Shown here piece after piece: positions 1,143 through 37,011 of a stretch of 37,945 bases of DNA (positions are counted from its first letter, which is position 1; each line of letters begins with the position of its first letter). Under the pieces are notes generated by a model. That model did no database searches. It was not told the DNA's origin and saw nothing but the letters and a program-made list of their open reading frames with translations. The stretch lies in the IMG/VR virus record IMGVR_UViG_2526164597_000009; one strand, written 5' to 3'. The position numbers and the translations under genes are program-made. The stretch comes from a virus (Duplodnaviria; Heunggongvirae; Uroviricota; Caudoviricetes).

Positions 1143-1748
1143 TTATCTTTCTACTTCCCAGCGTAGAGATTGCATTAACATAGCATAAATATTGAACAGG
1201 AAAGTTTTTAAAGTTAATACAAGGAACACTGCACTGCTTCCTACGAGTATATATAGTATTTGAACTCCAACAACTTTAGTGCAATGAGAAAACATTAAGG
1301 CTCTGAGTAATTTTGTAGCCAATCCATTTTCTTGCCCGAAAAGAAGGACTAAAAGATAGATAACAGACCAAAATATGAAATATATAAATACTCTCATAAA
1401 TACGCCATAAACATATTTTAAGTAACTTATCCCGTATAATGGATGCTTATACTCCATTAATGAAAGGAAAAGTTCAGGTTTATTTATGGTTGCAAATATT
1501 GTAAATCCAGTAATTAAAAAACCTAATGTTGTTGTAGTGAATCCGAATACTAAAGGTGTCCATTGTCTAATAGATGAAATTAACTCTGGTGATGAAGATA
1601 GACAAAAAGCATTAATAGATAATAATATCACTAATAATAATGTGAAATAAAAGTCAAATGAATTGACCTTTATTTTTTTAGTTAATTTGTAAACATCATG
1701 CAAAGATCGCTCTTTGGTCAGATCTTCTGGGTTGAATGTATATTTCAT
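1143..1748 (-). CDS. Hypothetical inner-membrane protein (about 4 predicted TM helices), last gene of the repressor-proximal cargo cassette
   Basis: 201-aa ORF in low-GC DNA; hydrophobic stretches such as LLLVILLSINAFCL, LVFGFTTTTLGFLITGFTIFATI, VFIYFIFWSVIYLLVLLFG, FLVLTLKTFLFNIYAML; start is 1 nt from upstream ORF stop. Confidence 0.6.
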   Translation of the reverse strand: MKYTFNPEDLTKERSLHDVYKLTKKIKVNSFDFYFTLLLVILLSINAFCLSSSPELISSIRQWTPLVFGFTTTTLGFLITGFTIFATINKPELFLSLMEYKHPLYGISYLKYVYGVFMRVFIYFIFWSVIYLLVLLFGQENGLATKLLRALMFSHCTKVVGVQILYILVGSSAVFLVLTLKTFLFNIYAMLMQSLRWEVER

Positions 1749-1749
1749 A

Positions 1750-2214
1750 CTATAGCCACCTAGAAATTATTGATGTTAACTTGGAAAAAATTTTAGTATA
1801 ATCTTCACGTTCTGGAATAATAATATTTCCTGCATCCTTTAATTCTGTGAATGCAGAATACGCCTCTTGAGCAGCTCTTTCCAAATCAGAACTAAGTTGT
1901 GGCCTTGATGCTTTTAGAGTAAAACTATCATTATTCCCTGATAGCCTTGCTCCGTGTTCATCTTTACCACTTATAATTACTTTAGAGTTGGCCATTCGGG
2001 TTGCACTTGTTGTTTTTTGAATGACGGCCTCAGAATTTAAACCATCTTCATTTTTATTTGTGTATACTAATTGAGCTTTACTACTATTAAGTTCTTCTTT
2101 TTCTTGTTCAATTTTCCTCCAGAAGCCATCAAGAGATATATTTTCACTATTTGTTGGCAATAACTCAATTGATAATCTATTAACAACAGAAAAGAGTTCA
2201 ACAAAATTGCTCAA
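1750..2214 (-). CDS. Hypothetical protein; probably the C-terminal part of a frameshifted about 348-aa gene (with 2294..2797)
   Basis: ORF begins with TTG and no good RBS; its frame is open upstream into the 3' end of the preceding ORF. Confidence 0.4.
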   Translation of the reverse strand: MSNFVELFSVVNRLSIELLPTNSENISLDGFWRKIEQEKEELNSSKAQLVYTNKNEDGLNSEAVIQKTTSATRMANSKVIISGKDEHGARLSGNNDSFTLKASRPQLSSDLERAAQEAYSAFTELKDAGNIIIPEREDYTKIFSKLTSIISRWL

Positions 2215-2293
2215 TGATCTTGGGTCTGTTAAGGGGGTAACCCGTAATTTGGGGGCTCCTAGTTTACGATAAATATCTTTTTTATACAGTCGA

Positions 2294-2797
2294 TCAATGT
2301 ATGATTTTTCTTTCTAATTCTTTTATTTTTTTTACTTCGTAATCCACAAAAGAATTATATCGCTGTGCAAGGCAATACTTGCTAGTATTTTCAAATTCTT
2401 CTAGGGTAGGGGCTCCAGAAACCTCTTTGCAAAGCATTAATCTGTGCTCATTAAGCATAAGAATAAAAATAGAGCTGGGGTGACTTTCTAGCGTCCTGTG
2501 ATCTCGAATTAATTGACCATCTTGAAATATTTGATCTCGTTTAAATATGGTCTTTTTTATAATGCGGCCACACAATGCAATTGTTGGAACTATAGGACCA
2601 ATAAAATCTGAATCTGTAGTATCTAACGTAATAATTTTTGTGTCAGTAAAGAAATATTCTGTATCTTTAAATTTTCTAACGTATTTTTGTGCGAAAAATG
2701 AAGGAAAAACAATGCAATCAAAAGCATCTAAGAGAACTTTGTCCTCTCCAAAATTTAAGGTATAGTTTGCAAATTCAATAGTTTTCGTAAAGCTCAT
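2294..2797 (-). CDS. Hypothetical protein; probably the N-terminal part of a frameshifted cargo gene
   Basis: 167-aa ORF in low-GC DNA starting 2 nt after the repressor stop; ends at an A5/T5 homopolymer (plus 2305..2309) where a 1-nt shift joins it to the next frame. Confidence 0.5.
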   Translation of the reverse strand: MSFTKTIEFANYTLNFGEDKVLLDAFDCIVFPSFFAQKYVRKFKDTEYFFTDTKIITLDTTDSDFIGPIVPTIALCGRIIKKTIFKRDQIFQDGQLIRDHRTLESHPSSIFILMLNEHRLMLCKEVSGAPTLEEFENTSKYCLAQRYNSFVDYEVKKIKELERKIIH

Positions 2798-2799
2798 TG

Positions 2800-3741
2800 T
2801 TAAACCCTTTTTCTAATTATTCCTTTAACTTTATTATTAAATTCCAAATCTTCTTTATCGCATTCAAAGCTATATTTTGTGTTTTCAACGCGGATGCGAT
2901 TGTTTGGAAGTTTAAATATGTCTCTAAAAGTAAATTCTCCGTTAATAGATACTAACCATAGACCATCGCTAAGATACTCCTCTTTGCTAATGATATATGA
3001 ATCATTTGCGGAATTAACTATATAGGGATGTTTTAAATTTTGAGGTAAAATTTCGCTCGAAACGATTAATTCTCTTTGATCAGTAAGTTTGCCGTCACGT
3101 AGATCATAGCAGTCTAATGTAAGCAACCCACTTAGCTTTGTTTGATTGGAATGCCCCTTACCAAAAGATAACCACTCGAGAGACACTCCTGTTTCTAAAC
3201 AGCATTGGATGATCCAGTCTGCCGGAAAAATGTCTCGCATGTATCGTGTAGCTAATGTGCTTTTTGAGATACCAAGGTGATCGGCTAAGGCTTGGCGCGT
3301 TTTGTAACCGTAAGCCTTAACAATTCGCTCTATTGCTGCTTTACCCCCTCGAGTGAAATCCATGTGGTTTTCATTATCGAACTTTATCGTGGGGGTGTGA
3401 ACTTCATTGCAAAATTCATCTGCAGACTGTTTTTCAGCATGCCGTTCTGGCGAAGGAGCTGGCACTCCTTCTTCAGCATCTAAACCAAATGCTAACCATT
3501 CGATTGATGCGCCAGTTTCCATTGAACATATAACAACCCAATCAGCAGGGAAGGTATCGCGTGCATATCTGTTAGCCATTGTACTTTGTGAAATACCAAG
3601 GTGGTTACAGAATGCTTGGCGTGATTTGAAACCATAGGCCATGAGTATTCTCTCAATGACTTTTTGCCCTCCTCGATTCTGCATGACCATGGCTTTCAGA
3701 TGATCTTCAACATGGCGAAATGTGATTTTATTAGTTGACAT
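2800..3741 (-). CDS. cI: Phage 186 CI-type immunity repressor with tandemly duplicated N-terminal HTH domain
   Basis: 313 aa; two about 65 percent identical modules (GGQKVIERILMAYGFKSRQAF...EWLAFG and GGKAAIERIVKAYGYKTRQAL...EWLSFG) then a C-terminal domain (GLWLVSINGEFTFRDIFKLPNNRIRVENTKYSFECD) resembling the 186 CI C-terminus as I recall it. Confidence 0.75.
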   Translation of the reverse strand: MSTNKITFRHVEDHLKAMVMQNRGGQKVIERILMAYGFKSRQAFCNHLGISQSTMANRYARDTFPADWVVICSMETGASIEWLAFGLDAEEGVPAPSPERHAEKQSADEFCNEVHTPTIKFDNENHMDFTRGGKAAIERIVKAYGYKTRQALADHLGISKSTLATRYMRDIFPADWIIQCCLETGVSLEWLSFGKGHSNQTKLSGLLTLDCYDLRDGKLTDQRELIVSSEILPQNLKHPYIVNSANDSYIISKEEYLSDGLWLVSINGEFTFRDIFKLPNNRIRVENTKYSFECDKEDLEFNNKVKGIIRKRV

Positions 3742-11787: not shown

Positions 11788-12186
11788 GTGAAAGAGTTGG
11801 AACTATATAATCTGAATTTTTATTTTAGCTTGTGTACTTCAGATGAAGTGGAAAGAATAAAAAATGTATCAAACTCGGCGGATTACTTACTCAAAATTAG
11901 GGCTAATGCAACTATAGAACATATCAGAATCCATCGGGTATTACTAGCTGCAATGCGTAGAAGTGGAAATAATTGGTCATTAAGTAGTTATTTTGATGAT
12001 TCTCCTTTTGAGGATTATATTGATGATGTTTCTGAACAGTACAAAGAACATCTAGAAGGGATCTCTGGCGGATTTGTATTTTGCAATGATCCGAATGGTC
12101 GGATATTAAAAACTGATTATGGATGTGTGATTACTATTTCAGAATCACTTAAGTATTTTTTGTATTACATGAATTTAGCTTTTTAA
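11788..12186 (+). CDS. Hypothetical protein; likely N-terminal part of a frameshifted HEXXH-peptidase gene
   Basis: 132-aa ORF with GTG start and AGGTG RBS; ends just after a T6 run (12156..12161) where a -1 shift enters the downstream frame. Confidence 0.45.
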   Translation: MKELELYNLNFYFSLCTSDEVERIKNVSNSADYLLKIRANATIEHIRIHRVLLAAMRRSGNNWSLSSYFDDSPFEDYIDDVSEQYKEHLEGISGGFVFCNDPNGRILKTDYGCVITISESLKYFLYYMNLAF

Positions 12187-12251
12187 CTTTTGATGATTGT
12201 GATGTTCCTGATGATGTAAGAATTGCTGCATTAAGAATTGCAATAAGAACT

Positions 12252-12869
12252 ATGATGCAAAAGGAATCAATGGATTTTGAAATTGATCCACGTGGTATAA
12301 TTCCATCACAAATTGATATGGAAATTAGGTACCATGTAAATGATGTGATGAAGTTTATTGTTGGTCATGAATATTCACATTACGTACTTGGGCATTTGAA
12401 TGATGAATCAACTTTCGAGGCGAGTTTTTTAACCTCTATTGATACGGAAGAAGTTAAACACAAATTTTTCTCCTATGACCAAAAGGATGAACTAGCAGCA
12501 GATATTCATTCTTTACGAATGTTGTCGCTTTCTAAAGAAAAATTGGCTGGGTTAATTCAAAAGGTTTGTATCTACTTCGTGTTCATGGATATATATTCAA
12601 ATGTAAAAGATCAGGTGTCACCTTCACTTAATTTCACAAAGACTCACCCTGAACCAATGGATAGGCTTAGAAATATCATAGAAGAGTTTAAGGAGGAAGT
12701 GGAAATTGATTATAATGAAATGGATAAGTTCATCAGATCAGGTGAGGTCATAAAGGGTTTCTTGCAAGATGATGCTGGGTATAATTTTGATGAAATATAT
12801 GATTTTTATGGATCAATTTATTTAGGTCAGTGGAGGGGAAAGCCGTTAATAGATAGGGTAGACTATTGA
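12252..12869 (+). CDS. HEXXH zinc metallopeptidase-like protein (ImmA/IrrE-like motif); likely C-terminal part of a split about 360-aa gene
   Basis: GHEYSHYVLGH motif near residue 38; the frame is open 33 codons upstream of the ATG without a start codon or RBS. Confidence 0.55.
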   Translation: MMQKESMDFEIDPRGIIPSQIDMEIRYHVNDVMKFIVGHEYSHYVLGHLNDESTFEASFLTSIDTEEVKHKFFSYDQKDELAADIHSLRMLSLSKEKLAGLIQKVCIYFVFMDIYSNVKDQVSPSLNFTKTHPEPMDRLRNIIEEFKEEVEIDYNEMDKFIRSGEVIKGFLQDDAGYNFDEIYDFYGSIYLGQWRGKPLIDRVDY

Positions 12870-20421: not shown

Positions 20422-20554
20422 CGGTGATCTGAACGCGTTGCTGGATGAAACGGAGGCCGCCTGGGCGGTCTGTGCAGACAAAGTGGACATGATTATTGCG
20501 TGTCAGGAGCGAAACAGTGAACAAACCACAATCCCTGCGCCACGTCCTCAATAA
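20264..20554 (+). CDS. lysC: o-spanin lipoprotein (LysC/Rz1-like), overlapping lysB in another frame
   Basis: 96 aa (same as P2 LysC), GTG start, lipobox LTLSGC, proline-rich. Confidence 0.65.
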   Translation: MRTRIYAAGLILLCLLTLSGCGNVRHSPEVQLTVSGCPRVTPCRLDQATPRTNGDLNALLDETEAAWAVCADKVDMIIACQERNSEQTTIPAPRPQ

Positions 20555-20948
20555 AGCGGTGCCTTATGTCCGCAATAACCCGGACAAACTGCATCTGTTT
20601 GTGGATAACGGTTCGCTGGTTGCCACGGGGGCCAGTTCCATGTCGTGGGAGTACCGTTACACCCTGAACGCGGTGATTGAGGATTTCAGCGGCGACCAGA
20701 ATCTGCTGATGGCCCCGGTTTTGCTGTGGCTGCGGGATAACCAGCCCGATGCCATCAATAACCCGGCGTTACGGGAAAAACTATTTACCTTTGAGGTGGA
20801 TATTCTGCGCAACGATGTCTGTGATATCAGCCTTAACCTGCAACTGACGGAACGTGTGCTGGTCAGCACTGACGGCAGTGTGTCGAGCGTTGAAGCTGTA
20901 GCAGAACCCGATGAACCTGAAGAAATGTGGACGGTGAAACGTGGCTGA
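20517..20948 (+). CDS. R: Tail completion protein (P2 gpR-like)
   Basis: Matches recalled P2 R (DSLR...FVDNGS...YTLN...WLR.NQPD); GTG start with AGGAG RBS. Confidence 0.8.
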   Translation: MNKPQSLRHVLNKAVPYVRNNPDKLHLFVDNGSLVATGASSMSWEYRYTLNAVIEDFSGDQNLLMAPVLLWLRDNQPDAINNPALREKLFTFEVDILRNDVCDISLNLQLTERVLVSTDGSVSSVEAVAEPDEPEEMWTVKRG

Positions 20949-21387
20949 ACTGCAGAAGGTGGACGACTGGCTTAGTGCCTTACTGGCGAATCTGGAACCA
21001 GTCGCAAGAAGCCGCATGATGCGCCAGCTGGCGCAGGAACTGCGCCGGACACAGCAGCAGAATATCAGGATGCAGCGCAATCCAGATGGCAGCAGTTATG
21101 AACCGCGCAAGGTCACGGCGCGCAGTAAAAAAGGCCGCATCAAACGTCAGATGTTTGCAAAGCTGCGCACCACCAAATACCTGAAAACCGCCGCCAGCGC
21201 CGACTCTGCCAGCGTACAGTTTGAAAGTAAGGTGCAGCGCATTGCCCGCGTTCACCATTATGGCCTGCGCGATCGCGTCAGCCGCAAAGGACCGGAAGTG
21301 CGTTACGCAGAGCGTCGTTTGTTGGGTCTTAATGGTGAGTCTTACGTTCTAACTCTTGATATATTGAATAGATTCCTTCTGTCTTGA
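20941..21387 (+). CDS. S: Tail completion protein (P2 gpS-like); the last about 17 codons run into low-GC inserted DNA
   Basis: 148 aa; GTG start overlapping R; 3' end overlaps the convergent cargo gene. Confidence 0.75.
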   Translation: MAELQKVDDWLSALLANLEPVARSRMMRQLAQELRRTQQQNIRMQRNPDGSSYEPRKVTARSKKGRIKRQMFAKLRTTKYLKTAASADSASVQFESKVQRIARVHHYGLRDRVSRKGPEVRYAERRLLGLNGESYVLTLDILNRFLLS

Positions 21388-22135
21388 ATTCACCATATGC
21401 CCAATGAATTGCATTTTTTTGTTCAGTCAGAATATATTTCCTAACTTTTTTAGAATAGTGAATGGTCAGTATAAAACCCAAAGAAATCCATAATAGAATA
21501 AATATGGTTGTTGGGGCAAAGGAATAGATAAAGAATTTGTCTTTAACGAAATTCTTGACTTCTTCATCAATGTAAGCATTCCCTTCATCAGTGGTTAGTA
21601 GTTTACAAAGAATTTCTTTATGCTCGATAGTTAATGATTTGTACTTCTCTGTACTGGCAGAGGATGACTCTTCGCAATCATCCTTTGATATTTCCCAATC
21701 AGGAGTGGTTAATATTGTAGCTGCAGTCGCCAGTTTTTTTGACATATAAAATGATTCACCGGATTTTATCCAATAAAGCAATGTGCTATTTGGTGGGGTT
21801 CTAATGGCTTGGATGAAAACTGGACCAAAAATATAAATTGCACACAAAAAAAGAAGTGAAAAGAGAACCGTGATTGATTTTTCAGCCCATGTGATAGTAG
21901 GCAGCCTTTTTAATGATATTCGTATAAGAAAAAAATTTAATATAAACGCAGGTATTCCTGATTTTTTCAAAATTACATCATGAGATTTTCTATATTTGAA
22001 TAGTGCTCTTATAACTATCGTCACCAAAGTTATAACAGCTCCAATAATGGAAATCCATGCGGCAAGTGCCGCTGCCGGGGTGTTTAAAAATTCAGCATTA
22101 AATATATTAGAACTTATTGGATTCATAACACTCAT
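21329..22135 (-). CDS. Hypothetical membrane protein moron between S and V (P2 orf30 position)
   Basis: 268 aa in low-GC DNA on the opposite strand to the late operon; TM segments near both termini (WISIIGAVITLVTIVI, FIYSFAPTTIFILLWISLGFILTI). Confidence 0.6.
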   Translation of the reverse strand: MSVMNPISSNIFNAEFLNTPAAALAAWISIIGAVITLVTIVIRALFKYRKSHDVILKKSGIPAFILNFFLIRISLKRLPTITWAEKSITVLFSLLFLCAIYIFGPVFIQAIRTPPNSTLLYWIKSGESFYMSKKLATAATILTTPDWEISKDDCEESSSASTEKYKSLTIEHKEILCKLLTTDEGNAYIDEEVKNFVKDKFFIYSFAPTTIFILLWISLGFILTIHYSKKVRKYILTEQKNAIHWAYGEFKTEGIYSIYQELERKTHH

Positions 22136-22174
22136 TTATCCACCTATTGGTTGTTTTTTATCCTTTTATCAATT

Positions 22175-22192
22175 TGTACCATCGATACCACA
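22175..22192. promoter_or_regulatory. Candidate Ogr-binding site (TGT-N12-ACA) upstream of V
   Basis: TGTaccatcgataccACA about 50 bp upstream of the V start codon. Confidence 0.35.
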
Positions 22193-22238
22193 ATTTGCAA
22201 GAAGTTATAAACAAGTTTTCAGCTGTCATCATATATCT

Positions 22239-22817
22239 ATGAACGCACAACTAACCGAAATCATGCGCCTTATCACCAATCTGATCCGCATAGGTGTAGT
22301 CACCGAAGTGGACCGGGAAAACTGGCTTTGTCGGGTGAAAACGGGCGACCTTGAAACCAACTGGATTAACTGGCTGACGCTGCGCGCGGGTAATGCCCGC
22401 ACATGGTGGCGACCATCGGAAGGTGAGCAGGTGGTACTGCTGAGTCTGGGCGGCAATCTGGAAACAGCCTTTGCTTTGCCCGCCATCTATTCTAATCAGT
22501 TTGCACCGCCGTCGCAGTCGGTGGACGCCTGTGTGACAGAACATCCTGATGGTGGCTGGTTTGAATACGAACCCACTACCGGGCGCTGGTATGTCAGGGG
22601 CATCAAATCCATGGTCATTGAGGCTGCCGACAACATCACCCTGAAAACCAGTGAGTTTGTGCTGGAGGCTGACCGCACGCGTATTAACAGCGAAGTAGTG
22701 ATCAATGGTGGCGTTACCCAGGGCGGCGGTGCAATGAGTTCTAACGGAATTGTGGTTGATGCACATCAGCATACTGGCGTCCTGAAAGGCGGCGACACAA
22801 CCGGAGGCCCGGTATGA
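22239..22817 (+). CDS. V: Baseplate assembly protein / spike (P2 gpV-like)
   Basis: 193 aa from MNAQLTEIMRLI...; longer ORF-track version begins in the inserted low-GC DNA. Confidence 0.85.
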   Translation: MNAQLTEIMRLITNLIRIGVVTEVDRENWLCRVKTGDLETNWINWLTLRAGNARTWWRPSEGEQVVLLSLGGNLETAFALPAIYSNQFAPPSQSVDACVTEHPDGGWFEYEPTTGRWYVRGIKSMVIEAADNITLKTSEFVLEADRTRINSEVVINGGVTQGGGAMSSNGIVVDAHQHTGVLKGGDTTGGPV

Positions 22818-26671: not shown

Positions 26672-26900
26672 TCTCAATCAGAATGGGTTCGCCCTTCTCG
26701 TTAACAGATATTTCCATTCCTTCAGGGATTTCAGATGCAGTAAAAAACCAGTTATCTTCTGGTAATTCCACAGCCCCGGTCACGTCATGAAGACCGGGGA
26801 TTACTTCAGTCAAAGTAACAGGATTAAACAGGCGCACAATAAACTCTCCAGGAAAAAGCACTTGTTGATGGTCTTCCGTCGTACATCTGGCAGCGGACAT
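26640..26900 (-). CDS. Putative alternative tail fibre assembly/chaperone protein (G-prime), silent in current orientation
   Basis: Minus-strand ORF downstream of the alternative fibre cassette; start ambiguous (ATG at 26900 or GTG at 26837 with GGAG RBS). Confidence 0.35.
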   Translation of the reverse strand: MSAARCTTEDHQQVLFPGEFIVRLFNPVTLTEVIPGLHDVTGAVELPEDNWFFTASEIPEGMEISVNEKGEPILIEIKPSQVELAR

Positions 26901-27165
26901 AAAAACCTGTATTACTGACCTGGTCATCCACGATCATTGAAACGTGAACGTTATTAGGTGTGGCCTCGTAATCTGTTCTTATTCTTTCCGCTATGCTGAT
27001 AAAACGTGAAAGCTTAGGTAGTGCAATTGGATAAACGACTTTAGCCAGCCCATTATCATTGGAACCACCAGTTCCAAATACTTCTATTGCACCATCTGAC
27101 CAGCGTATCCATGCACCATTGACATTAGCTCCTCGCTGAATGACATATCTGGCTTCTCCCAAACC
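26824..27165 (-). CDS. Promoterless alternative tail-fibre C-terminal cassette (Hv-prime) within the invertible segment
   Basis: Minus-strand frame passing through the right crossover site and encoding the same GLGEAR junction peptide as H at the left site. Confidence 0.45.
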   Translation of the reverse strand, partial: GLGEARYVIQRGANVNGAWIRWSDGAIEVFGTGGSNDNGLAKVVYPIALPKLSRFISIAERIRTDYEATPNNVHVSMIVDDQVSNTGFYVRCQMYDGRPSTSAFSWRVYCAPV

Positions 27166-27179
27166 AACGTTTATGAAAA
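27154..27179. promoter_or_regulatory. DNA-invertase crossover site (right), inverted relative to 25699..25724
   Basis: TTCTCCCAAACCAACGTTTATGAAAA, close to recalled cix/gix/hix sites; about 55 bp upstream of the invertase gene. Confidence 0.6.
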
Positions 27180-27234
27180 TGCAGAGATAACGGCTAACTG
27201 GCATCATCCCCGGTTTTTATTCAGGGGATTGATC

Positions 27235-27801
27235 ATGCTTATTGGCTATGTACGCGTGTCAACAAATGACCAGAACACTGATTTGCAACGTAATGCACTG
27301 AACTGCGCGGGATGTGAGCGGATTTTTGAGGACAAAATCAGTGGCACTAAGTCCAACAGACCGGGGCTGAAAAAACTGCTCAGGACACTATCGGCAGGAG
27401 ACACGCTGGTTGTCTGGAAGCTGGACAGGTTGGGGCGCAGTATGCGGCATCTTGTTACGTTGATAGAAGAGTTGCGCCAGCGAGGTGTGAATTTCCGAAG
27501 CCTGACTGACAGTATTGATACCAGTACCCCAATGGGCCGTTTCTTTTTTCATGTCATGGGTGCCCTGGCTGAAATGGAACGCGAACTGATAGTTGAACGT
27601 ACCAGGGCGGGGCTTGCTGCAGCTCGCGCCAAAGGCAGAGTAGGTGGACGCCGTCCTAAGTTGACTACCGAACAGTGGGCACAGATTGGACGCTTACTCG
27701 AGGCCGGAGAATCAAGACAGCGTATTGCACTGATTTTTGATGTGGGTGTTTCCACAATTTATAGAAAATTTCCGGCAAATAAGAGTAATGAATCCCCCTG
27801 A
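27235..27801 (+). CDS. Serine recombinase DNA invertase (Pin/Gin/Cin/Hin family)
   Basis: MLIGYVRVSTNDQNTDLQ...VVWKLDRLGRSM...SPMGRFFFHVMGALAEMERELI closely matches E. coli e14 Pin as recalled; catalytic Ser in the YVRVST motif. Confidence 0.9.
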   Translation: MLIGYVRVSTNDQNTDLQRNALNCAGCERIFEDKISGTKSNRPGLKKLLRTLSAGDTLVVWKLDRLGRSMRHLVTLIEELRQRGVNFRSLTDSIDTSTPMGRFFFHVMGALAEMERELIVERTRAGLAAARAKGRVGGRRPKLTTEQWAQIGRLLEAGESRQRIALIFDVGVSTIYRKFPANKSNESP

Positions 27802-34781: not shown

Positions 34782-34871
34782 TTCTTCGCAATGGAGAACT
34801 TTTAAGTTTGCGAAATGGAATAATGCGGTATCATTATTGTGATTTTAGCAAAAATGGGGAGAACTCGAAAA

Positions 34872-35090
34872 ATGATGATTTGCCCACTGTGTGGAAGTGC
34901 CGCCCATACTCGCAGCAGTTTTCAGGTATCTTCATTGACCAAAGAGCGTTACAACCAGTGCCAGAATATTAACTGCAGCCATACTTTTGTTACCCATGAA
35001 ACTTTTGTTCGTTCGATTGCAACGCCAAAAGAGTCAAATCCGGTTCAGCCGCATCCAATGAAATCAGGACAGGTGGCGCTCTCTCTTTGA
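34872..35090 (+). CDS. ogr: Late gene transcriptional activator, Ogr/Delta zinc-finger family
   Basis: 72 aa, CPLC...CQNINC zinc finger; matches recalled P2 Ogr (MFHCPLCQHAAHARTS...KERYHQCQNVNC). Confidence 0.85.
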   Translation: MMICPLCGSAAHTRSSFQVSSLTKERYNQCQNINCSHTFVTHETFVRSIATPKESNPVQPHPMKSGQVALSL

Positions 35091-35112: not shown

Positions 35113-35170
35113 TCGATAAAAAACAGTGCTTCTAACATCATGATTTTAAAAGGCATAAATTTCAGGCAAC

Positions 35171-35214
35171 AAAAAACCCATCAACCTTGAACCGAAATGG
35201 CGGGGTTGATGGGC
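35171..35214 (-). terminator. Candidate Rho-independent terminator downstream of ybjL
   Basis: 10-bp inverted repeat CCCATCAACC/GGTTGATGGG followed on the minus strand by TTTTTT; loop is long (17 nt). Confidence 0.4.
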
Positions 35215-35325
35215 TCCACAAAATGGGGACATCAAAGAAAAGCAGTGGCACTAATTAAGACTGATGCCCTGCGGAAAAGTTCTGCGGTTGTGCAAAAAAA
35301 TTTCATTTTCAGGGCAACTTCAGTT

Positions 35326-37011
35326 TTATCCTAATCCTGGCCATACCATGACGATGATTGTCCCTGCCAGCGTCAGCAGGACGTTGGCGATTGCGTAGGT
35401 GCCCGCATAGCCCAGCGCAGGGATGTTACTGCGAGCTGTATCACTGATGATCTCCATTGCCGGCGCGCAGGTGCGTGCGCCCATCATTGCGCCGAACAAC
35501 AGTGCGCGGTTCATTCGCAATACATAAGCACCGAACAAGAAACAGATAACCACGGGCACAAGACTGACAATTAATCCGGCAATCAACATCTGACCGCCAA
35601 TCGCGCCCAGGCCGTTATTAATACCGCTACCGGCGCTCAGACCAACGCCTGCCATAAACACCATCAAGCCGAACTCTTTCACCATGCTTAATGCACCTTG
35701 CGGAATGTAACCGAAGGTCGGGTGGTTAGCACGCATAAAGCCCAGCATAATTCCGGCGAATAACAACCCGGCAGCGTTCCCCATGCCGAAACTGAATGTG
35801 CTGAACTGGAAGGTGATCATCCCGATCATCAGCCCAATAACAAAGAAGGCGCAGAATGCCAGCAGGTCAGTGACCTGGCTGTGAATCGAGATAAAGCCGA
35901 TGCGATCGGCGATGGTTTTTACGCGGCGGGCATCGCCGCTGACTTGTAAAACGTCACCTTTGTTAAGCACGACGTTGTCATCTATCGGCATCTCAATCTG
36001 GCTACGAATGACGCGGTTAAGGAAGCAACCGTGATCGGTCAACTTCAGTTGTGCGAGACGTTTACCTACAGCGTTATGGTTTTTAACGACCACTTCTTCA
36101 GTGACGATACGCATGTCGAGAAGGTCACGATCGAAAACTTCTTTACCGTTACGGAAGCTGGGATCGAGTCGGGCATGGGCGTCGGGATAGCCTACCAACG
36201 CTATTTCATCGCCCATTTGTAGCACGGCATCACCGTCTGGATTTGCCAGAATCCCGTTACGTCGAATACGTTCAATGTAGCAGCCGGTTTGTCGATAAAT
36301 ACCCAGTTCACGCAGATTTTTGCCGTCGGTCCAGGCCACCAGCTCCGGGCCGACGCGATAGGCGCGGATCACCGGTAAATAAACCTTACGGTTGGCATCA
36401 GTGTCCAGGCCACGTTCGCGGGCGATTTGCTGGGCGCTGGTCTGTAAGTCCTGATGCTGCAATTTCGGCAAGTAACGCGCACCAACAATCAAACTCACCA
36501 GACCGATTAAATAGGTTAAGGCATACCCGAGGCTCAGATTATCCAGTGCCAGTGAGAGCTGCCTGCTTTCCATGCCGAAATGACGCAGTGTATCGCCAGC
36601 ACCGACCAGAACCGGTGTCGACGTCATAGAGCCTGCTAACATACCGGCCGTCAGGCCAATATCCCAGCCAAACAGCTTACCTAACCCTAAGGCGATCACC
36701 AGCGCACTGCCAACCATCACCAGTGCTAACATTAGGTAATTTTTCCCATCGCGAAAAAAAATGGAAAAAAAGTTCGGTCCGGCTTCGACCCCGACGCAGA
36801 AAATAAACAGCATAAAGCCAAGATTAAGCGCATCGGTGTTAATGCTGAAATGTTGTTGGCCTAATAACAGCGATACGACTAAAACGCCAATGGAATTACC
36901 CAGTTGGATCGAACCAAGTCGTAACTTTCCGAGACATAGCCCAAGCGCGAGGACCACAAATAATAACAGAATGTAATTCCCATTTAACAATTCGGCGACG
37001 TTTATATTCAC
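35326..37011 (-). CDS. ybjL: Putative transport protein YbjL (AAE-family transporter with central TrkA-C-like domains)
   Basis: 561-aa ORF recognised as E. coli YbjL by length and flanking gene order (ybjM, grxA); multiple TM segments. Confidence 0.88.

Follow-up and report, generated by a model that had tools for sequence, protein, structure and literature searches.

The S–V junction and its cargo gene

The window analysed here is a whole 37,945-nt stretch of Caudoviricetes DNA (IMG/VR record IMGVR_UViG_2526164597_000009), numbered from its first letter. Between two genes of P2 type, S and V, it carries a moron that is read antisense to the late operon. The features of this junction are the following:

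20941..21387, plus strand: gene S (tail completion/virion morphogenesis; P2 gpS), with an AT-rich, cassette-borne C-terminal tail; Pfam Phage_tail_S, E 1.9e-38
21329..22135, minus strand: coding sequence of the DUF6216-family membrane protein (the moron), 268 aa, ATG start and TAA stop, from the ORF list
~21339..22235: replacement cassette of ~900 bp with a GC of 0.32–0.36, made up of a variant S tail, the moron and a variant V promoter region
21527..21805, minus strand: predicted periplasmic alpha/beta domain, codons 111–203, with the invariant C154 and C177
22140..22145, minus strand: Shine-Dalgarno sequence AGGTGG of the moron, read directly from the sequence, 4 nt 5' of the ATG
22173..22200, minus strand: candidate sigma-70 promoter of the moron, near-consensus and inferred, with -35 TTGCAA (22200–22195), a 16-nt spacer with TG and -10 TACAAA (22178–22173)
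22175..22192, plus strand: TGT-N12-ACA activator (Ogr-type) dyad of the V promoter, TGTACCATCGATACCACA, centred 55 nt 5' of the V ATG
22239..22817, plus strand: gene V (baseplate spike; P2 gpV); Pfam Phage_base_V and Apex

Pfam also recognises P2 gpR among the flanking genes. The original prediction had described a 268-aa ORF on the opposite strand in low-GC DNA, overlapping the 3' end of S, whose tail is itself low-GC, and abutting the dyad of the V promoter. These points were borne out. The ORF has a GC content of 33% (flanks ~57%) and a GC3 of 0.27 (0.59–0.62 in R, S and V), its 3' end and that of S form a 59-bp antisense overlap at 21329..21387, the S sequence downstream of ~21338 has 33–35% GC, and the ORF starts 40 bp from the dyad. 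A chance reading frame in AT-rich DNA was rejected, the probability of 268 stop-free codons at the composition of the ORF being ~1e-9. The protein has 31 near-full-length homologues with 50–99% identity. In divergent pairs, with protein identity to the window copy down to 50% and remnant copies included, dN/dS is 0.14 to 0.32. Judged by these sequence comparisons, the moron is a real gene under purifying selection. Its periplasmic domain turned out to be somewhat more variable (omega 0.19–0.36), and a search of this domain for positive or diversifying selection gave no sign of either (omega ≤0.36).

The moron had been described as inserted between S and V. It does lie there, but not as a clean insertion: it is part of a replacement cassette that brings an S tail and a V promoter version of its own. 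Sister phages whose junction is empty resemble the window up to ~21338 and again from ~3 nt before the V ATG, and the S tail downstream of ~21338 differs from the tail in those phages. All 15 other cargo-bearing representative loci that were tabulated share this structure. Short family members found outside the S–V slot (243–246 aa) end just before the segment that overlaps S. No terminator-like site was found in 21100–22400, and the moron ends inside S.

In each of the 17 loci tabulated, a dyad begins between -63 and -66. The pV activator site has the same position in the P2 record, where V transcription is annotated to start at the first base of the coding sequence; an Ogr-like zinc-finger ORF is present in the window at ~34854–35090. 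As for the candidate promoter of the moron, six loci, among them prophage remnants without V, have TTGCAA and TACAAA unchanged but differ in the spacer. The Serratia remnant keeps both hexamers though the 12-nt spacing of the dyad is lost. A stringent promoter scan upstream of the moron returned no site and missed this candidate too. The conservation of this near-consensus candidate suggests that, as predicted, the gene may be expressed from its own promoter in the lysogen.

Occupancy of the slot and persistence of the gene

The S–V site is known from P2 as the orf30 slot for morons (PMC6823313, PMC3091744). Its content was surveyed in 76 IMG/VR phages with a V protein at least 95% identical to that of the window. 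The slot is empty in 44 of them, eight have the moron gene, and the remaining 24 carry other AT-rich cassettes of at least 14 further size classes. All cassettes have 30–37% GC, and every cargo gene but one lies on the minus strand; the moron cassette consists of a single gene. The empty slot in close relatives, the AT-rich composition, the orientation antisense to the late operon and the known slot lend good support to the predicted moron between S and V. A comparison of the junction across P2-like phages had been proposed as a check, and in the phages surveyed the moron did not prove to be conserved throughout with a virion function. That it is a conserved virion component was rejected, most relatives having an empty slot. 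The block at 21339–22235 is exchangeable cargo of the P2 orf30 slot and not a new type of element.

Alternative occupants gave matches to PARIS AriA/AriB, a fused AriAB/GajA-like ATPase, AbiU/AIPR and a KAP NTPase (PDC-S49), and further ones to an FRG protein (PDC-S15) and a TIR protein. At three loci the slot holds a second DUF6216 allele with only 24% identity, and several other membrane proteins are also among the uncharacterised single-gene cargo. Of 1047 complete E. coli genomes that have this type of V, ~111 carry the moron itself. P2 morons (old, tin, Z/fun etc.) are AT-rich exchanged cargo at a few fixed slots and are often anti-phage (PMC9122126, PMC13586616, bioRxiv 10.1101/2024.10.15.618418). 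The moron resembles such hotspot cargo in being AT-rich and horizontally exchanged, and PARIS, AIPR/AbiU, KAP, FRG and TIR genes share its very slot. However, the products of such cargo are cytoplasmic and have recognised domains, being nucleases, ATPases or NADases, whereas the moron encodes a membrane protein without a recognised catalytic domain. Since sister phages hold recognised anti-phage systems in the slot, the moron is a plausible phage-exclusion candidate, and the superinfection exclusion or abortive infection of the original prediction gains plausibility; sharing a hotspot with defence genes is statistical evidence only.

The moron is intact in K. aerogenes, Serratia, Franconibacter and other remnants, while the flanking phage genes are truncated or gone; its ORF is intact in every remnant examined. 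It is even kept as a lone chromosomal gene after complete decay of the prophage, e.g., across Franconibacter species. The defective P2-like prophage of E. coli B/BL21 has a 99.5%-identical copy, which is ECBD_RS14385 in BL21-Gold(DE3)pLysS AG and which RefSeq annotates as a DUF6216 family protein. E. coli B/BL21 is the classical permissive host for T1–T7, and the gene must therefore be either silent there or inactive on those phages. Two family members were found in other settings. One is located between Q and the holin in a lambdoid prophage, a region that is a site of cargo genes in lambdoid phages, and has ParE and a methyltransferase beside it; the other comes first among the cargo genes of a Tn7-like element, beside a Cap4-type nuclease.

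Family, topology and remote relatives

The protein matches Pfam DUF6216 (PF19723) with 45.6 bits against a cutoff of 27.3 (E 7e-12), the alignment joining residues 72–237 to profile positions 114–265 of 270. Profile–profile comparison with canonical DUF6216 (alignment A5) gave 84% probability and E 7e-6 for the window-protein alignment (A3), and 95.6% and E 1.3e-8 over 99 columns for the broader subfamily (A7). It is close to certain that the moron is a DUF6216-family inner-membrane protein. Canonical members such as P0080 and a Bordetella bronchialis protein share with it a C-terminal half made of the second membrane helix, a two-Cys periplasmic domain and the third helix. They differ in the N-terminal ~110 residues of the profile: positions 1–113 remained unaligned both to the moron protein in the Pfam match and to its broader subfamily in the profile–profile comparison. 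By these alignments, the subfamily of the window protein is one with an N-terminal region unlike that of canonical DUF6216. It is small, with 49 representatives in 1.84 billion clusters; its organism-named members all come from Enterobacterales, and most of the contexts examined are prophage-linked.

Other searches added little. No PADLOC-DB v2 defence-protein model matched the moron protein at E ≤1, the PHROGs gave no usable match, and no Pfam family, exclusion families included, reached E ≤0.1 apart from DUF6216 and a sub-threshold holin. The holin-like matches (Pfam Phage_holin_2_3, E 0.037, 14.5 bits against a cutoff of 28.8; PHROG phrog_4237, E 0.26) lie on the first membrane helix only. 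These matches are below threshold and cover just a hydrophobic helix. A tblastn search of 50,697 deposited phage genomes with the moron protein found no match, and the megablast matches of the region were confined to the S and V flanks.

Transmembrane segments near both ends of the protein had been anticipated. Hydropathy places hydrophobic segments at both ends (residues ~20–45 and 204–226) but adds a middle one (86–110), three in total. The predicted topology has the N-terminus outside, three membrane helices, a basic cytoplasmic loop, a periplasmic domain of ~95 aa and a cytoplasmic tail. Across 38 diverse family members, C154 and C177 are the sole invariant columns, and F129 and W147 are nearly invariant; all four residues lie inside the predicted periplasmic domain, which is probably stabilised by a disulfide. 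In the AF2 model, one long helix (183–245) that includes the third membrane helix connects this domain to the cytoplasm. Neither the full-length model nor the domain model has structural neighbours among solved structures and BFVD viral models.

P2 Orf30 (NP_046770, P2p15) occupies the S–V slot on the minus strand, abuts the pV activator site and is AT-rich, with 261 aa compared to 268 aa. By inspection, its translated sequence has the same three hydrophobic segments as the moron protein, the last of them preceded by a D-C...C motif. The P2 arrangement differs in that S and Orf30 are free of overlap and are separated by an annotated terminator, whereas here S and the moron overlap. A Pfam search of Orf30 gave no match, and direct profile comparison of the window-protein alignment with the Orf30 family was not significant. 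The Orf30 family (A6) reached canonical DUF6216 with 85% probability (E 6e-6, 189 columns), and the broader subfamily reached the Orf30 family with 48.6% probability (E 1.8e-4) on the Cys-Cys core. P2 Orf30 is probably a remote relative of the moron, with the link running via canonical DUF6216 only. It is nonessential, and its function is listed as unknown (PMC3091744).

Proposed function and its alternatives

The explanation that we consider best, with a probability of roughly 0.4 and hence tentatively, is envelope protection by a prophage-expressed protein, most likely superinfection exclusion via its periplasmic domain; we infer both this function and its regulation. The prophage would express the moron from its own promoter, divergent from the V promoter and interleaved with its activator site. 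The protein would protect the lysogen at the envelope, where its periplasmic domain would most likely interfere with delivery of the genome of a superinfecting phage across the inner membrane. In late lytic growth, the activator on the dyad together with antisense late transcription may shut the moron off. A role in superinfection exclusion or defence is plausible from association and anatomy. The slot-mates that are defence genes, the intact low-dN/dS gene in decayed prophages, the family members at other mobile cargo sites, the invariant hexamers of the candidate promoter and the invariant periplasmic Cys count for exclusion. Against it count the lack of PADLOC, PHROG and SieA/SieB similarity and of structural neighbours, the T-phage-sensitive E. 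coli B carrying the gene, the promoter that the stringent scan did not return, the missing terminator and the lack of any sign of positive selection.

P22 SieA offers a functional analogy, being a small prophage inner-membrane protein whose gene lies antisense just after late structural genes and has its own promoter. SieA blocks DNA injection, and its sequence types are <30% identical to each other (PMC10883804). With 164 aa, it has no sequence relationship to the moron (hhalign probability 0.35% against SieA and 0.14% against SieB), and a block of injection by a DUF6216 protein would be an analogy only. The HK97 gp15 moron, reportedly described by Cumby et al. in 2012, is said to be a tail-region moron whose inner-membrane protein blocks DNA entry and causes superinfection exclusion. 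It is likened to the present one, also a tail-region moron encoding an inner-membrane protein, by description.

Lysogenic conversion unrelated to phage is a rather unlikely alternative. The protein would then confer immunity to a periplasm-acting toxin (a pore-forming bacteriocin, a tailocin or a T6SS/CDI effector) or a host-beneficial change of the envelope. Such a role would suit the periplasmic location of the conserved core, the lone gene that outlives the prophage in Franconibacter and the full T-phage sensitivity of E. coli B, as well as the ordinary chromosomal settings of canonical DUF6216 genes, which in Bordetella lie among DUF4148 genes beside gyrB and occur likewise at locus L104. 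However, the cassette is a single gene that neither a toxin gene nor an effector gene accompanies in the slot, and the other recognisable cargo there is directed against phages instead of conferring immunity to toxins.

It is unlikely that the protein is a membrane effector or sensor of abortive infection. Infection would then trigger depolarisation or permeabilisation of the inner membrane and death of the cell before phage release. The association with the defence hotspot is the same as for exclusion, the single long helix of the AF2 model would suit transmembrane signalling, and the weak matches on the first membrane helix are holin-like. Nevertheless, most Abi triggers are found in the cytoplasm, but the invariant residues of this protein in the periplasm; a partner sensor gene is absent, and the holin-like matches are below threshold and cover only a hydrophobic helix.

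An accessory of the phage's own lytic cycle, setting lysis timing or blocking re-adsorption of progeny to lysing cells, appears improbable: the moron lies just downstream of lysis and tail-completion genes and beside the V promoter, but it is antisense to the late operon, absent in most sister phages and kept where the phage is dead, and Orf30, the P2 occupant of this slot, carries a nonessential annotation. It is very improbable that the ORF has no current function and persists by chance, hitch-hiking or silenced, since its dN/dS is low in remnant copies too and all remnants examined have it intact, although its AT-rich DNA is likely H-NS-bound and a 2026 preprint on H-NS-silenced BL21 immunity loci names DUF6216 once (bioRxiv 10.64898/2026.09.05.749240).

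A broader proposal, which we regard as speculative and rather unlikely, is that DUF6216 and P2 Orf30 form one prophage inner-membrane superfamily that would exclude superinfecting phages by an undescribed disulfide-bonded periplasmic fold. The V dyad, inside the spacer of the moron promoter, would double as an operator, and one binding event would turn V on and the exclusion gene off. If true, this superfamily would explain P2 orf30.

The S–V slot has been studied much less than the hotspots old/tin and Z/fun, and it now turns out to hold recognised defence systems in one lineage of near-identical phages. These systems make its uncharacterised single-gene cargo, i.e., two divergent DUF6216 alleles and several other membrane proteins, credible candidates for exclusion at the envelope. 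An anti-phage role of the moron would provide a function for P2 orf30 and for a Pfam domain of unknown function; if there is no such role, its persistence in decayed prophages would even so suggest that the host envelope benefits in some way. The 99.5%-identical copy in BL21 opens the hypothesis to a simple deletion or cloning test.

The moron and the S–V slot

The original prediction placed a 268-aa protein on the opposite strand in low-GC DNA, overlapping the 3′ end of S, whose tail is itself poor in GC, and abutting the dyad of the V promoter. All of these points are borne out by the sequence. The moron is a real gene and was correctly called a moron; its slot is a known site of variable cargo, and its family is a catalogued one with a domain of unknown function. 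The features concerned are as follows:

20496-20948: gpR, P2-type (Pfam)
20941-21387: gpS, P2-type (Pfam)
21329-22135 (-): moron ORF of 268 codons, ATG 22135-22133 to TAA 21331-21329 (ORF list)
22175-22192: dyad TGT-N12-ACA, 40 bp from the moron start
22239-22817: gpV, P2-type (Pfam)

The ORF overlaps the end of S by 59 bp and has a GC content of 33% with a GC3 of 0.27, as compared to a GC3 of 0.59–0.62 in the flanking genes. A ribosome-binding site, AGGTGG, lies 4 nt 5′ of its ATG. In a sliding window, GC falls from ~0.57 to 0.32–0.36 exactly across 21300-22200, and the S tail past ~21338 has a GC content of 33–35%. The chance probability of a 268-codon open frame at this base composition is ~1e-9.

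The S–V position is the classical 'orf30' of P2, one of three regions in P2-like genomes known for nonessential genes gained by horizontal transfer (PMC6823313, PMC3091744). In the P2 record it is filled by Orf30, a protein of 261 aa encoded on the minus strand between the post-S terminator and the pV activator-binding site. The slot was surveyed in 80 IMG/VR loci chosen for a V protein with ≥95% identity to that of the window, both S and V being found in 76. The slot is variable: S and V lie 68 bp apart in 44 of the 76 loci (the empty junction, as in L001), 8 carry the same DUF6216 cassette as the window and 24 carry other cassettes of 14 size classes. Cassette GC is 30–37% throughout, and all cargo genes but one are on the minus strand. 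The alternative occupants comprise PARIS AriA/AriB, a fused AriAB/GajA-like ATPase, an AIPR/AbiU protein, a KAP NTPase (PADLOC candidate PDC-S49, E 4e-135), an FRG-domain protein (PDC-S15), a TIR protein, several unannotated proteins, some of which look membrane-associated by sequence, and a second DUF6216 allele (3 loci) only 24% identical to the one in the window. These contents mark the orf30 slot as a diversity hotspot rich in defence genes. At a coarse level this is already recognised, since a 2026 survey places one defence hotspot of P2 'within the tail genes', on the downstream side of GpL (PMC13586616).

The moron does lie between S and V as predicted, but it is not a clean insertion, because the cassettes replace the S tail as well. 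After the conserved RRLLG, a different AT-rich variant of the tail is present in all 16 cargo-bearing loci tabulated, and the variants share a residue pattern (e.g., LDILNRFL, RDMILQWL, RDLLLKYL). Exchange thus seems to proceed by crossovers within S and at the beginning of V, each cassette being a replacement rather than an insertion. The variant tails cover the last ~16 codons at 22–38% GC, with the pattern LLGxN...D-hydrophobic-hydrophobic...WL (L002, L024, L030-L032, L035, L040, L051, L056, L058, L066, L068, L081, L090). The stretch that codes for the final ~21 residues of the 268-aa protein runs antisense to the S tail, and family members outside the slot (243–246 aa) lack these residues; conservation of this end probably reflects a constraint on S rather than on the moron.

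The dyad starts 63–66 nt 5′ of the V ATG in 17 of 17 loci, including one empty junction and every cassette type, so that its centre falls near −55, counted from the first base of V. This agrees with the P2 record, where V transcription starts on the first base of the CDS. The V start has no Shine-Dalgarno sequence (window 22175-22241), a feature that fits the leaderless V transcript annotated in the same record. The 103 bp between the two start codons are highly conserved, more so than the coding sequence, even in remnants devoid of V. On the moron strand they contain TTGCAA, 16 nt ending in TGG, and then TACAAA, a candidate sigma-70 promoter that is close to consensus and has an extended −10. 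Neither hexamer varies, unlike the spacer; in a Serratia remnant the 12-nt spacing of the dyad is lost and both hexamers are kept. A stringent promoter scan did not call the candidate, because its −10 hexamer is devoid of the final T, and a terminator scan around the moron found none. The activator dyad is located inside this candidate promoter, where it shares bases with the −10 hexamer and borders the −35 hexamer, so a single binding event of the late activator could activate V and shut off the moron. In addition, late transcription continuing past S would be antisense to the moron.

Protein family and distribution

The protein matches the Pfam family DUF6216 (45.6 bits vs. a cutoff of 27.3) over its C-terminal two-thirds only. 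A PHROG search gave no meaningful match, and PADLOC and tblastn against 50,697 deposited phage genomes gave none. There are 31 near-full-length homologues of 50–99% identity, with E. coli, Salmonella, Klebsiella, Citrobacter, and Serratia as named hosts. An exhaustive profile search revealed only 49 relatives among 1.84 billion cluster representatives; those with a named organism are all from Enterobacterales (e.g., Cedecea, Franconibacter, Erwinia, Mixta, Tatumella).

Membrane segments had been predicted near both ends and are indeed there, but hydropathy reveals three in all, not just one at each end: residues ~20–45, 86–110, and 204–226. By the positive-inside rule, the N-terminus is predicted to be outside, the K/R-rich loop 45–87 and the basic tail 227–268 cytoplasmic, and residues 111–203 periplasmic. 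Across 38 diverse members only C154 and C177 are invariant, F129 and W147 being nearly so, and all four fall within the predicted periplasmic domain. This pattern suggests a functional core that faces the periplasm and may be stabilised by a disulfide. The full-length AlphaFold model is of moderate confidence (pLDDT 74.8), the last helix of the periplasmic domain extending across the membrane as the third membrane helix and on to the cytoplasmic side. For the domain alone, the model is confident (pLDDT 87.4, pTM 0.77), with four beta strands followed by helices.

P2 Orf30 itself has no Pfam match, and its direct comparison with the window family gives no similarity. On inspection of its sequence, however, it has three hydrophobic segments and a D-C...C before the last one, with spacing similar to that of the window protein. 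In profile comparisons, canonical DUF6216 matches the Orf30 family (85% probability, E 6e-6, 189 columns), the window family (84%, E 7e-6), and the broader window subfamily (95.6%, E 1.3e-8); the latter matches the Orf30 family in the Cys-Cys core only (48.6%, E 1.8e-4). The two proteins are therefore likely to be remote homologues within one superfamily, which would link P2 orf30 to DUF6216.

A single copy of the cassette is found in each of 111 out of 5,426 complete E. coli genomes; about 1,047 genomes have a V gene of the window type. E. coli B/BL21 has it at 99.5% identity in a defective P2-like prophage (rcdA-ybjL), where RefSeq labels it 'DUF6216 family protein'. That prophage also has a retron annotated as St85-family between the replication and portal genes. 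The window prophage appears to have the full set of P2 late genes. RybB sRNA (35168-35246, minus strand, Rfam 105 bits) lies between its Ogr-like ORF (~34854-35090) and ybjL (35326-37011), hence the prophage is integrated next to rybB, between rcdA and ybjL, at the same site as in E. coli B.

The ORF stays intact in decayed prophages. In K. aerogenes it is accompanied by R fragments, S, and the first 23 codons of V, followed by an IS element; in Serratia rubidaea by a scrambled remnant that retains pieces of A, P, O, and Q; and in locus L011 by the final 35 codons of S and a fragment of V. In Franconibacter and in L094/L095 the intact gene lies between ybjL and a TetR-family gene at the rcdA position, with only unannotated ORFs beside it in the latter two; beside the moron of L010, no other match to window phage proteins is detectable. 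The K. aerogenes loci L004/L005 share 86% identical DNA with the first ~64 codons and upstream region (window 21944-22290), while the protein overall is only 50% identical, a mosaic allele indicating recombination inside the gene.

Family members are also found in the S–V slot of an intact P2-like prophage in Tatumella and in a lambdoid prophage, where one neighbours ParE and a methyltransferase in the region from Q to the holin, a cargo site of lambdoid phages. In a Tn7-like transposon (L102, 7001-11296), the cargo begins after TniQ with a canonical DUF6216 gene, and a Cap4-type nuclease and an SMC/AAA_23-like ATPase follow.

Possible function

The best explanation, to which we give a probability of roughly 40%, is superinfection exclusion: the prophage-expressed protein would reside at the inner membrane and its periplasmic domain would interfere with genome delivery by a superinfecting phage. 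It is favoured because of the defence-rich slot, the antisense layout with a candidate promoter of its own, the retention in dead prophages, the other mobile-element cargo sites, and the periplasmic conserved core. The closest functional analogue is SieA of P22, an inner-membrane protein whose gene is antisense and directly follows the late structural genes, although profile comparison reveals no sequence relationship. SieA prevents the injection of DNA, and its sequence types diverge strongly (PMC10883804).

A protective or immunity function unrelated to phage, also exerted in the periplasm, is a less probable reading; some canonical DUF6216 members have ordinary chromosomal contexts. E. coli B is the standard permissive host for T1–T7, and since it has the gene, any defence must have a narrow range or be silenced in that strain. 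Immunity loci silenced by H-NS are the subject of a 2026 bioRxiv preprint, which uses 'BL21' 29 times, 'P2-like' 4 times, and 'DUF6216' once. The exclusion hypothesis should be easy to test in BL21. That the protein is a membrane effector of abortive infection, a role the original prediction named beside exclusion, is unlikely. A role in the phage's own lytic cycle is still harder to credit, and P2 Orf30 is annotated as nonessential. Lack of any current function is the least credible; divergent moron pairs show pairwise dN/dS of 0.14–0.32, so the moron is a protein-coding gene under purifying selection.

Other features of the prophage

Three ORFs (201, 154, and 167 aa; GC 29–33%) occupy 1143-2797 (minus strand) between the integrase (1-1131) and the CI repressor (2800-3741), with no match in Pfam or PADLOC; the integrase-proximal region is a minor P2 defence hotspot according to a 2026 survey. 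A second low-GC island (11788-12869, plus strand, ~32% GC) fills the old/tin slot between the replication and portal genes. It encodes ORFs of 132 and 205 aa, the latter weakly matching M48 peptidases (E 3.3e-6) but nothing in PADLOC. In the tail-fibre region, a resolvase/invertase gene (27229-27801, plus strand) adjoins an oppositely oriented ORF (26824-27207, minus strand), which suggests that part of the tail-fibre region is invertible, like that of related prophages (BL21, strain H3). The longest CI-repressor ORF (2800-3741, minus strand) has 313 aa with two matched stretches of the CI helix-turn-helix domain; as CI of BL21 has 189 aa, this may be either an ORF-calling artefact of an upstream start or a duplicated N-terminal domain.
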